12,890 nt of DNA from a virus. Taxonomy: Duplodnaviria > Heunggongvirae > Uroviricota > Caudoviricetes. The position numbers were made by a program, and so were the translations under genes. The stretch covers positions 1 through 12,890 of IMG/VR virus record IMGVR_UViG_2703718777_000025. One strand, 5' to 3'. How positions within the stretch are numbered: position 1 is the first letter of the stretch; each line of letters begins with the position of its first letter. Below, piece by piece: positions 6,532 to 8,398 of this stretch. A model generated the notes under the pieces. That model was not told where the DNA came from. It ran no database searches and was given only the letters and a program-made list of their open reading frames with translations.

Positions 6532-6702
6532 TTAAAGTTCATGTGCCATCTGGTCTTTTTCGGCACAAGATTCACTGCAATATTTTCTCGGTTCGTCTTT
6601 TGATAAAATCCCGTGCATGAAGTGAAGCATTCTTTCAATAGCTTTGCTTTCTTCAACGTCTTTTTTGCAAAGGTGGTAAGCACATTTTATTTTCTTAGTC
6701 AT
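6532..6702 (-). CDS. ydaE: YdaE-like small cysteine-rich (zinc-binding) protein
   Basis: Not in the supplied ORF track. My own translation of the minus strand gives 56 aa [56 protein letters not shown]. Its start codon overlaps the kilR stop codon. Confidence 0.85.
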   Translation of the reverse strand: MTKKIKCAYHLCKKDVEESKAIERMLHFMHGILSKDEPRKYCSESCAEKDQMAHEL

Positions 6703-6923
6703 CACCATGACTCCGCCTTTACAGGTAAACCATCACGACCGAGGAAGACTTTAATCATGCGGTCAGTAATGCATGTTTTTGTGGTCAGGTTACGAATATA
6801 TAGTTTTCGCTTTTTAATATTGTTTGCCGAGGCAATATATGTCCGGCCTTCATGAAGAACATAATCGCCAGGAGTCACACACTGACGTGGTATTTCATCA
6901 GTTCCGAAGTGATGTGCAATCAT
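6702..6923 (-). CDS. kilR: KilR cell-division (FtsZ) inhibitor
   Basis: 73 aa from [32 protein letters not shown], matching Rac KilR. GGAG ribosome binding site 6 nt upstream of ATG 6921-6923; the longer track ORF starts inside that site. Confidence 0.9.
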
Positions 6924-7096
6924 AATTATCTCCATTTTTACAAATGAACTTTGTTGATGCGGTGCCTGGTGCCTCCAGGTGACTGCAACCAGTTAACAAT
7001 TACAGTCGGCTTTCCCACCCAAACCAATAAGGACTAACATGACTTTTAACTGTGCCACGTGCGCTTAGCCGCATTCACCGCATCACAAAATTCACT

Positions 7097-7145
7097 TAAA
7101 AAAGGGCGGACATCAGCCGAACTTCAAGAAAAAACTGATGCCGCC
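7097..7145 (-). terminator. Candidate intrinsic terminator for leftward (minus-strand) transcription, upstream of kilR
   Basis: Stem GGCGGACATCAG(7105-7116)/CTGATGCCGCC(7135-7145), 11 bp with a one-base bulge and an 18-nt loop. On the minus strand it is followed at once by U6 (reverse complement of A-run 7098-7103). Confidence 0.35.
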
Positions 7146-7324
7146 AGGACTACACACAGCAATGTCGTTATTTACAACCGGAGGCGCACTCCCACCATTT
7201 AAATTTAACAGACAAGACCGACTCTTTATGGATATCGGAAATGCGCCTTCGTGTTGTGCCCGGTTTTATTTCACCACCTCCGGGCTTCGGTGGTTTTCGT
7301 TATTCCCCAACAGCGAAAATTAGG

Positions 7325-7675
7325 TTAATCTGAATATCCCCCAACAGATGGAAGGATTTTTCTATGCTCGAAAATCAGACCTTGAAGGTTGCCTGCCCTG
7401 ATTGCGGCAGTGAGATGCTCAAGCGGCCCGATGATTTTGACTTTGACACTAATTTCGTTGGCGTTAGTTGTGCCGAATGTGGTCGAGAAATCACTAAGGA
7501 CGATGTTATTAAGCAAGGAAAAAATGTAGTTCAGAAACAAGTCAATGACATGCTCCGGAACACCCTCAAAGGCAGCGGGTGGAAGTTTAAATAACCCATG
7601 TATCGCACTAAAGTGTTCCGTTACTTCTGTAGCGTCTATGGTAAGTTTGATAGGCGCTATTTTCACTCCCGTCAT
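7325..7675 (-). CDS. Hypothetical 116-aa protein, first ORF downstream of a strong leftward promoter
   Basis: ATG 7673-7675 with GAGGTG 6 nt upstream; about 70-nt leader from the promoter at 7752-7780. Fully overlaps the zinc-ribbon ORF on the other strand, so one of the two may be spurious. Confidence 0.45.
   Translation of the reverse strand: MTGVKIAPIKLTIDATEVTEHFSAIHGLFKLPPAAFEGVPEHVIDLFLNYIFSLLNNIVLSDFSTTFGTTNANEISVKVKIIGPLEHLTAAIRAGNLQGLIFEHRKILPSVGGYSD
7364..7594 (+). CDS. Small zinc-ribbon protein (CPDCG...CAECG), function unknown
   Basis: 76 aa, ATG 7364 with GGAAGGA 7 nt upstream. Two CxxCG motifs about 23 residues apart are typical of a zinc ribbon. Lies entirely inside the antisense ORF 7325-7675. 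Confidence 0.5.
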   Translation: MLENQTLKVACPDCGSEMLKRPDDFDFDTNFVGVSCAECGREITKDDVIKQGKNVVQKQVNDMLRNTLKGSGWKFK

Positions 7676-7751
7676 ACATCACCTCAAATCTTTTCCCTTA
7701 ACGCCGGGTGGCGGAACTAAAACCTACAGCGCCGTGCTGTTCTCGATAGAA

Positions 7752-7876: not shown

Positions 7877-7910
7877 CAAAAAAAACCGACTAAGACGTCG
7901 GTTTTTTTTT
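7877..7910. terminator. Bidirectional rho-independent terminator downstream of racR
   Basis: A8 run, stem CCGAC/GTCGG, T9 run (AAAAAAAACCGACTAAGACGTCGGTTTTTTTTT), 27 nt past the racR stop. Confidence 0.75.
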
Positions 7911-7936: not shown

Positions 7937-8398
7937 CTACTGGTTACGTTTCTTTAGTGCCAGCATGTTCTCGAAGGCTTCCTCGTAGAGCTTGTTTAGT
8001 CCACGTAGCTGGTTAAGGAGTTTGGCTTTTTCTGACGCAGGTAGAATCTCGAAGAGGTTAAGTAACTCTGCCTGTTCTTCATTGACCAGCCTCCATCCTT
8101 TGCCTGAAAAGCTATCATCATAAGTATCTGATGATCTTACATAATTCATTAAGTCTTTAAGGTCTTCTCGAATGTCCTCTGGTTTTACCTTTAACAGAGC
8201 CGCAAATTTTAGCGCAGCGTCGGTATTTACCGGTATCTTGCCGTTCAGATACTGGCTAACGGTGCCTTGAGATTCGAATCCCAACAACTCAGCCGCCAAC
8301 TCTTGAGTCAGCTTCAGCTCTTTTTTTCTTGCATTCCATGCGGCTTTTAAATTCTTGCTCGCTTCTGGAGTTGCAATCACTTCGCGTGTTTTTTTCAT
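7937..8398 (-). CDS. racR: Prophage repressor, XRE/CI-type helix-turn-helix, RacR-like
   Basis: 153 aa with helix-turn-helix LTQELAAELLGFESQGTVSQYLNG. Divergent from the cro-like gene. No S24 peptidase-like C-terminal domain. ATG 8396-8398 has no Shine-Dalgarno and a -10-like TAAACT 6 nt upstream, suggesting a leaderless mRNA. Confidence 0.8.
   Translation of the reverse strand: MKKTREVIATPEASKNLKAAWNARKKELKLTQELAAELLGFESQGTVSQYLNGKIPVNTDAALKFAALLKVKPEDIREDLKDLMNYVRSSDTYDDSFSGKGWRLVNEEQAELLNLFEILPASEKAKLLNQLRGLNKLYEEAFENMLALKKRNQ

Follow-up and report, generated by a model that had tools for sequence, protein, structure and literature searches.

The interval 6936–7324 of the window (the whole stretch of DNA analysed here, 12,890 nucleotides) is probably a Rac-type prophage's regulatory module for kilS and kilR, in which the KilS terminator would act as a leaky attenuator ahead of kilR and the leader of the read-through RNA would be a target of RNase III. 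The small RNA of this module, KilS, is an Hfq-dependent RNA that has already been published and annotated; the finding is genuine and was placed at the right position, but its core is mostly known. Three elements of the present analysis were not found in the searchable literature: that the KilS terminator and the kilR leader are homologous to DicF and the leader of dicB, that the kilR leader has an STnc100-like fold which is supported by covariation and contains a probable RNase III helix, and that KilS carries an RprA-like seed; a dicF-like sequence next to the kil gene of Rac may already have been described by Faubladier & Bouche (1994) and Conter et al. (1996). These additions are modest extensions of known biology and do not represent a new kind of system. 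KilR is a toxic cell-division inhibitor whose controlled release underlies both the lethality of bicyclomycin and Rho defects and the growth arrest induced by OxyS, and for this reason the sequence directly upstream of kilR matters. The module offers a testable model in which read-through, RNase III processing, and the production of a small RNA by-product are coupled ahead of division inhibitors.

Prophage Setting and Identity of KilS

Rfam and BLAST comparisons with complete E. coli genomes identify the origin of the window as a Rac-type lambdoid prophage of E. coli. In the BLAST comparison, positions 6700–7700 match YdaE, KilR, and an ECs_2282-family zinc-binding protein, and the closest full-length relative, in strain R1 (95.5% identical), has the annotated order int, xis, ralR, exo, bet, gam, recE, ydaE, kilR, ECs_2282, racR, ydaS, ydaT. 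The interval 6936–7324 is far from random, at least 80% of it being present in about 1771 of the 5426 complete E. coli genomes. The kilR coding sequence (6702–6923, minus strand, 73 aa), placed from the RefSeq annotation of homologues and coordinate mapping, is preceded by a Shine-Dalgarno sequence, GGAG (6930–6933, minus strand), recognized from the sequence. To the right of the interval lie a rightward zinc-ribbon gene of the ECs_2282 family (7364–7594, plus strand, 76 aa, with CxxC...CxxC), which holds the slot occupied by sieB in the Rac prophage of K-12, and a racR-like HTH repressor gene on the minus strand (7937–8398). An open reading frame of 116 aa on the minus strand (7325–7675), which has no family match and is fully antisense to the ECs_2282-family gene, is probably spurious. 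Just downstream of the racR-like gene there is a perfect 13-nt inverted repeat (AAAAAAAACCGAC / GTCGGTTTTTTTT, 7878–7909) with flanking A/T runs, which looks like a bidirectional intrinsic terminator. Elsewhere in the window, RyeA/SdsR (463–607) and the RalA antitoxin small RNA (2169–2347) were both matched by Rfam at the gathering score; the presence of the former indicates that the integrase end of the prophage adjoins ryeA/sdsR and not the site of K-12 Rac near ttcA.

In the RefSeq annotation of K-12, the ncRNA gene kilS (b4833, 1418405–1418502) lies between kilR and sieB, on the same strand as kilR. Mapped by alignment, it corresponds to 7195→7099 on the minus strand of the window, a length of 97 nt as opposed to 98 nt in K-12, although the 3' end of the transcript may take in one more U at 7098. 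The placement is that of K-12: intergenic, on the kilR strand, and directly upstream of kilR. There is identity at 96 of the 97 aligned bases, the sole internal difference being one U fewer in a loop, and the terminal U tract has been lengthened from five residues in K-12 to six by one substitution just past the annotated 3' end. Both published northern probes for KilS occur verbatim in the window, and the RNA has a predicted folding energy of −34.4 kcal/mol (z −3.2). In K-12, KilS was predicted from RIL-seq data and confirmed by northern blot (Bar et al. 2021; PMC8175672). It is present in the wild type, absent in Δhfq, and accumulates in stationary phase; its start site is at 1418502 (Suppl. 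Table 6 of that study), an internal RNase E site is at 1418471 (about nt 32), and yncL is a reproducible partner of KilS in RIL-seq chimeras (PMC8175672). The first-pass annotation had suggested, as an alternative function of this noncoding DNA, that it might encode a small RNA, and this was well founded, the hairpin and U run that it pointed out being the terminator of the annotated and northern-verified KilS.

Upstream of the mapped 5' end there is a candidate extended −10 promoter, TGTTAAATT (7202–7210, minus strand), with TAAATT at −12 to −7 and a weak −35 element. This sequence is identical to that of K-12, and we infer that it is the kilS promoter. Given the identical promoter, body, and terminator, a discrete, Hfq-dependent KilS transcript would be expected in this strain.

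The KilS Terminator and Its Relationship to DicF

The terminator of KilS (7098–7145, minus strand), as defined by folding and by an Rfam match to DicF, is of the DicF type and consists of a stem at 7145–7105 with the arms GGCGGCAUCAG...CUGAUGUCCGCC, a C, and a U6 tract at 7103–7098. The stem has a folding energy of −19 kcal/mol, with a z score of −3.73 and no equally good fold among 200 shuffled sequences, which bears out the earlier proposal of an intrinsic terminator for minus-strand transcripts at this position. It is missing from a simple terminator scan because the loop of the hairpin exceeds the 8-nt limit of the scan, and direct folding was used instead. The hairpin is identified as the KilS terminator by the coincidence of 7145–7098 with the mapped 3' end of KilS. 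Conservation of the stem pairing among homologues, which had been regarded as important for this proposal, is seen in part: the GGCGG/CCGCC base and the U5–6 tract are invariant in 12 of the 13 aligned homologues, with the CCGCC arm and U tract kept in the thirteenth, and one compensatory change of C-G to U-A was found by eye in the stem of one homologue (L125), but RNAalifold detected no covariation in the terminator hairpins. That there is little support from covariation reflects the invariance of the base and the differing lengths of the loops.

In an Rfam scan at the gathering thresholds there was no match in the region, and the similarities to DicF, STnc100, and RprA appear only in a scan ranked by E-value. 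The match to the DicF model (RF00039) covers the full model at 7104–7158, with 37.6 bits and an E-value of 1.2e-6, a score below the gathering score of 48; true DicF scores 76.7 bits with the same model. The two RNAs share the terminator frame GGCGG.AUCAG...CCGCCC-U5, and in each the hairpin is positioned in an early-left operon directly before a homologous leader of ∼175 nt and the gene of a cell-division inhibitor. Both bind Hfq, and both have a 5' end generated by RNase E that exposes a single-stranded seed. However, the 5' seed and the loop of DicF differ from those of KilS, KilS unlike DicF has its own promoter, and the downstream gene is kilR as opposed to dicB. The genes surrounding these elements are also arranged in parallel, the Rac order ydaG, ydaF (DUF1391), kilS, kilR corresponding to the Qin order ydfA (DUF1391), ydfB, ydfC, dicF, dicB. 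A DicF-like pairing of KilS with ftsZ was considered and rejected, since the duplex of the hairpin with the ftsZ ribosome binding site (−24.9 kcal/mol) was equaled by 63 of 300 shuffles, whereas that of DicF with the same site (−27.9 kcal/mol) was equaled by none of 300.

It should be noted that the DicF terminator is known to be leaky: Rho-independent termination in dicBF gives the 53-nt DicF, but a full-length dicBF mRNA also exists (PMC5069750).

Structure of the kilR Leader

The 175-nt 5' leader of kilR (6924–7098, minus strand), as delimited by Rfam, BLAST, and covariation, resembles STnc100 and is homologous to the dicF-dicB spacer. In a distant BLAST search with 6936–7324, the segment 6943–7146 was found to be ∼78% identical to regions annotated as DicB/DicF in many E. 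coli genomes and phages, including phage Tritos, in which DicF is annotated in the matching region. The STnc100 model of Rfam (RF02076) is matched over its full length by 6916–7115 with 37.7 bits and an E-value of 1.1e-6, below the gathering score of 47, and the dicF-dicB spacer of K-12 gives the same below-threshold match. A three-way alignment of kilS-kilR with dicF-dicB indicates that the homology extends from the 5' foot of the terminator hairpin to a point just short of the Shine-Dalgarno sequence; the seed regions upstream are unrelated, as are the kilR and dicB coding genes.

Taken as a whole, the transcript of kilS and the kilR leader (7195→6920) has a folding z score of −4.9, far better than shuffled sequence. 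Within the 175-nt leader, a helix of 21–23 bp closes a multi-branched domain made up of three inner helices and the hairpin CCUGG-AGGCA-CCAGG. The fold was examined in 17 non-identical homologues from Escherichia, Shigella, Scandinavium, Pseudescherichia, Citrobacter, Lelliottia, and phage D6, for which the RNAalifold prediction comprises 45 pairs and shows compensatory changes at 15 of these. When the pairing partners were slid, the number of covarying pairs fell to 2–6, and no value as high was obtained in 500 shuffles; in an explicit count, 96.3% of the leader cells are paired, as compared with 34–44% with the partners slid. An alignment of homologous prophages had been recommended as a check on the region, and for the leader it gives firm evidence of a conserved structure. 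The 5' arm (7076–7097, minus strand) of the closing helix of 21 bp pairs with a 3' arm at 6942–6964 (minus strand), which is defined by the fold and by covariation and ends ∼8 nt before the kilR Shine-Dalgarno sequence; 9 of the 21 pairs covary. The CCUGG-AGGCA-CCAGG hairpin, at 6965–6979 on the minus strand, is the core motif of the STnc100-like family and shows a U-A to G-C covariation in its middle pair.

The closing helix has a counterpart with a known processing event. In dicBF, RNase III cuts the read-through mRNA to yield a 72-nt form of DicF (PMC5069750), and the 3' end of this form, 19 nt past that of the 53-nt species, falls in the arm homologous to 7076–7097. Because of this position, the closing helix is by analogy a putative RNase III site in the kilR read-through RNA.

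An RprA-like Stretch in KilS

Nucleotides 22–48 of KilS (7148–7174, minus strand) form a single-stranded stretch, identified by local alignment to nt 50–75 of K-12 RprA, that is likely to be the seed. KilS and RprA have in common an exact run of 16 nt, AUUGCUGUGUGUAGUC, at 7163–7148, and over the longer alignment 25 of 26 positions are identical with one gap; the corresponding Rfam match to RprA (RF00034) has an E-value of 0.4. By simple arithmetic, a 16-mer common to a 97-nt RNA and ∼10 kb of E. coli small RNA sequence is expected ∼2e-4 times. The stretch is kept in KilS-like variants of ∼80% identity whose flanks differ, in E. coli 23CRST049 and the phages phiSTEC1589-Stx1c and GER2. RNase E cleavage near nt ∼32 of KilS would give a ∼66-nt RNA that begins with this stretch and continues into the hairpin, and a 5' seed before a hairpin is also the architecture of DicF.

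The stretch is complementary to positions −40 to −16 of the yncL 5' UTR. The duplex calculated for the restricted seed (−18.9 kcal/mol) exceeds background only modestly and is weakly significant, since an equally good value was reached in 6 of 500 shuffled sequences and in 19 of 170 genomic windows. RNAduplex runs with the full-length RNAs, which over-extend, were set aside in favor of the restricted seed duplex. The mRNA of yncL is listed among the targets of RprA found by both TRIC-seq and RIL-seq (bioRxiv 10.1101/2025.09.11.675593). Both yncL as a reported partner and a short form processed by RNase E are features that RprA shares with KilS; neither RprA nor DicF is mentioned in the study of KilS by Bar et al. 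2021 (PMC8175672). However, the likeness between the two RNAs is confined to the single-stranded segment that immediately precedes the terminator, and the part of RprA that pairs with rpoS was not found in KilS. KilS, unlike RprA, is borne by a prophage, and nothing points to control of KilS by Rcs.

The sequence relationship suggests that the RprA-like stretch of KilS is a prophage copy of a pairing stretch of RprA. A broader proposal, which we offer tentatively and regard as possible without favoring it, is that KilS is a prophage-made chimera of one of the single-stranded pairing stretches of RprA with a DicF-type terminator scaffold and that the DicF/KilS hairpin and leader constitute a portable cassette processed by RNase III. 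If this is true, Rac-type prophages could control some of the targets of RprA or compete for them, yncL being the first such target in common, and KilS may overlap in this way with the targets of a small RNA of the core genome.

Transcription into kilR and Alternative Readings of the Region

A promoter resembling PL, TTTACA-18-TATAAT (7821–7792, minus strand), is suggested by 11 of 12 matches to the consensus. It points left from a position downstream of the repressor gene, and transcription from it would cross the ECs_2282-family gene in the antisense direction on the way to kilS, a location that puts the KilS terminator in the path of early-left transcription. The silence of kil and recET has been attributed to control by the repressor, as shown by zygotic induction (PMC5917428), and to a NusG-dependent Rho terminator, trac, inside racR, which is weakened by defects in rho or nusG or by OxyS so that kilR is turned on (PMC4150792; PMC5793797). 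Neither of these published mechanisms involves the KilS hairpin. Because impairment of Rho/NusG alone is enough for kilR expression, and because expression of dicB passes through the homologous hairpin, the KilS hairpin must presumably be leaky.

These considerations bear on an alternative in which the hairpin is chiefly an operon terminator like lambda tL1, blocking transcription from PL before kilR-recET when no antiterminator is present and causing the silence of recET, with KilS as a by-product. The first-pass annotation had proposed such a layout, and part of it is seen in the sequence: an intrinsic terminator lies between the PL-like promoter and kilR-ydaE-racC-recE, as tL1 lies in the leftward early operon upstream of kil and recombination genes; its base and U tract are invariant across lineages; and in 23CRST049 and phiSTEC1589-Stx1c a KilS-like element with the same terminator is found downstream of an annotated N antiterminator gene. 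However, tL1 is suppressible by N, and there is no N-like open reading frame between 7937 and 7196, where the sole frame, of 116 aa, has no Pfam match; R1 and the Rac prophage of K-12 are likewise annotated without N between the repressor and kilR. In the absence of N both here and in K-12 Rac, it is mainly the repressor and Rho/NusG that keep kilR and recET silent, and the suggestion that the hairpin explains why recET is silent is not supported, given these published causes and the read-through of the homologous DicF terminator. Further, the KilS terminator has no sequence similarity to tL1 and is also the 3' end of a small RNA with its own start site, a dependence on Hfq, and an RNA partner, so that a role principally as a tL1-type terminator appears doubtful. 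An alternative that is a little less probable still, and that we consider unlikely, is that the 175-nt segment is a trans-acting small RNA of the STnc100/PasD type and not a cis-acting leader of kilR. STnc100 and PasD are described as base-pairing small RNAs, and they share with the leader a GGUGAAU...CACC closing helix, the first hairpin, and the invariant CC(U/G)GG-AGGCA-CC(A/C)GG hairpin, together with a prophage context and a covariation-supported fold; the match to the STnc100 model is full length, and in other genera many members of the family have a terminator of their own downstream, which makes them resemble free-standing small RNAs. Nevertheless, the score of the segment is below the gathering threshold, and, whereas many other STnc100 members look like terminated, free-standing RNAs, the element here and upstream of dicB is fused to a coding gene, running into a Shine-Dalgarno sequence and start codon with no terminator between.

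Other readings concern the plus strand. The block upstream of the kilS promoter (7196–7324, no strand assigned) is conserved, being identical to K-12 up to ∼7295, and contains the inverted repeat ACCACC/GGTGGT at 7273–7294; its homology to other Rac-type prophages ends at ∼7300–7335. That the block acts on the plus strand, either as the promoter or 5' UTR of the ECs_2282-family gene (sieB in K-12) or through a terminator or small RNA at 7273–7294, would accord with its conservation alongside each of the two rightward genes to within ∼70 nt of the start and with the survival of the ACCAC/GTGGT stem in a diverged relative (L130), but no σ70-like plus-strand promoter was found, and we regard such a function as quite improbable. 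The plus-strand hairpin followed by TTTT, which had been listed as a second terminator candidate, was rejected: it folds no better than shuffled sequence (z −1.1, 24 of 200 shuffles as good), the fold on the minus strand is modest (z −2.3), and the T run is not conserved, TTTT being absent in K-12 and other relatives, which have GGTGGTCTCGG or GGTGGTATAC. It is highly improbable that the region encodes a small protein, from either the 61-aa frame at 7138–7323 or a 9-codon frame (MTFNCATCA) beginning with the ATG at 7039. The open reading frames of at least 30 aa in 6936–7324 comprise those of 47, 61, and 30 aa on the plus strand and one of 33 aa on the minus strand. Both of the small frames in question are open, and the second stands behind an AAGGA sequence, as had been reported. 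However, there was no Pfam match for the 61-aa or 47-aa plus-strand frames, and the 61-aa frame is broken by indels of 1 and 4 nt in the close relatives L130 and L030, in agreement with the initial view that the interval contains no credible open reading frame. The 9-codon frame lies in the hypervariable insert of the leader, antisense to it, and in relatives that are 90–95% identical overall this segment is replaced by unrelated sequence, and the frame is not confirmed as significant; the 61-aa frame and the 9-codon frame are antisense to a verified small RNA or a structured leader.

The reading as a kilS-kilR regulatory module can be set out as a series of steps. As indicated by identity with K-12, transcription of kilS proceeds leftward from its own start at 7195 and ends at the intrinsic terminator (stem 7145–7105, U run to 7098). 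The product would base-pair through the exposed stretch CAUUGCUGUGUGUAGUCC, which matches the yncL 5' UTR just upstream of the ribosome binding site. The terminator would act as a leaky attenuator at which most polymerases from the kilS or the PL-like promoter stop, and the fraction that reads through would, as judged from dicBF, make the kilR mRNA. RNase III may then cleave this read-through RNA at its closing helix, as happens in dicBF, and the cut would separate a longer form of KilS from the kilR mRNA and set the stability or translation of the latter. In relatives that encode N, this protein would override the KilS-type terminator.

Distribution of the Cassette

KilS, DicF, and the STnc100-like leader belong to one mosaic cassette common to Rac- and Qin-type prophages. 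The motif CACC(G/U)GGAGGCACC(C/A)GGCAC, taken from the core of the leader, occurs in >120 loci across Enterobacterales (L004–L123), among them Kosakonia, Enterobacter, Pantoea, Erwinia, Rahnella, and plasmids, and 2–3 copies ∼220–570 nt apart are present in L043, L071, L077, and L099; a few matches, in unrelated genomes of high GC content, seem to be accidental. In a sample of 28 loci, most of the enterobacterial matches represent the wider STnc100-type family (GGUGAAU, the CCCCCUAAGCGGAGGGG hairpin, and then the core hairpin), and several have a downstream terminator of their own. As a probe for leaders of the kil/dic type, the motif CACCNGGAGGCACCNGGCAC was discarded, because a kil/dic-type 5' core is present in only 19 of 132 instances and the rest belong mostly to the wider STnc100 family; with so few instances, a census of the downstream genes is too small to be used. 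If the cassette proposal is correct, the hairpin and leader have been placed by lambdoid phages before kilR, dicB, and other early genes, such as those of the Rha family and tciA, and the seeds have been swapped by recombination, of which E. coli HB6 provides one observed example.

In HB6 (L129, NZ_CP040305.1, ∼1475–1806), the 5' half of KilS, with the RprA-like stretch, is joined to a true DicF-type hairpin, and this chimera is followed by the same leader before a gene for a Rha-family regulator, with kilR after it; the arrangement indicates that the modules exchange. In the Stx phage GER2 (L126, MG710528.1, 2501–2589), a KilS-like small RNA of ∼78% identity with the same terminator lies between two hypothetical genes; its RprA-like stretch has two changes, and BLAST gave no match to the kilR leader downstream of it. 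The same STnc100-like leader is found in the P1-like phage D6 (L132, ∼1459–1695) upstream of tciA, and P7 (H102) also carries a match to it, so that the cassette is not restricted to lambdoid early-left operons.
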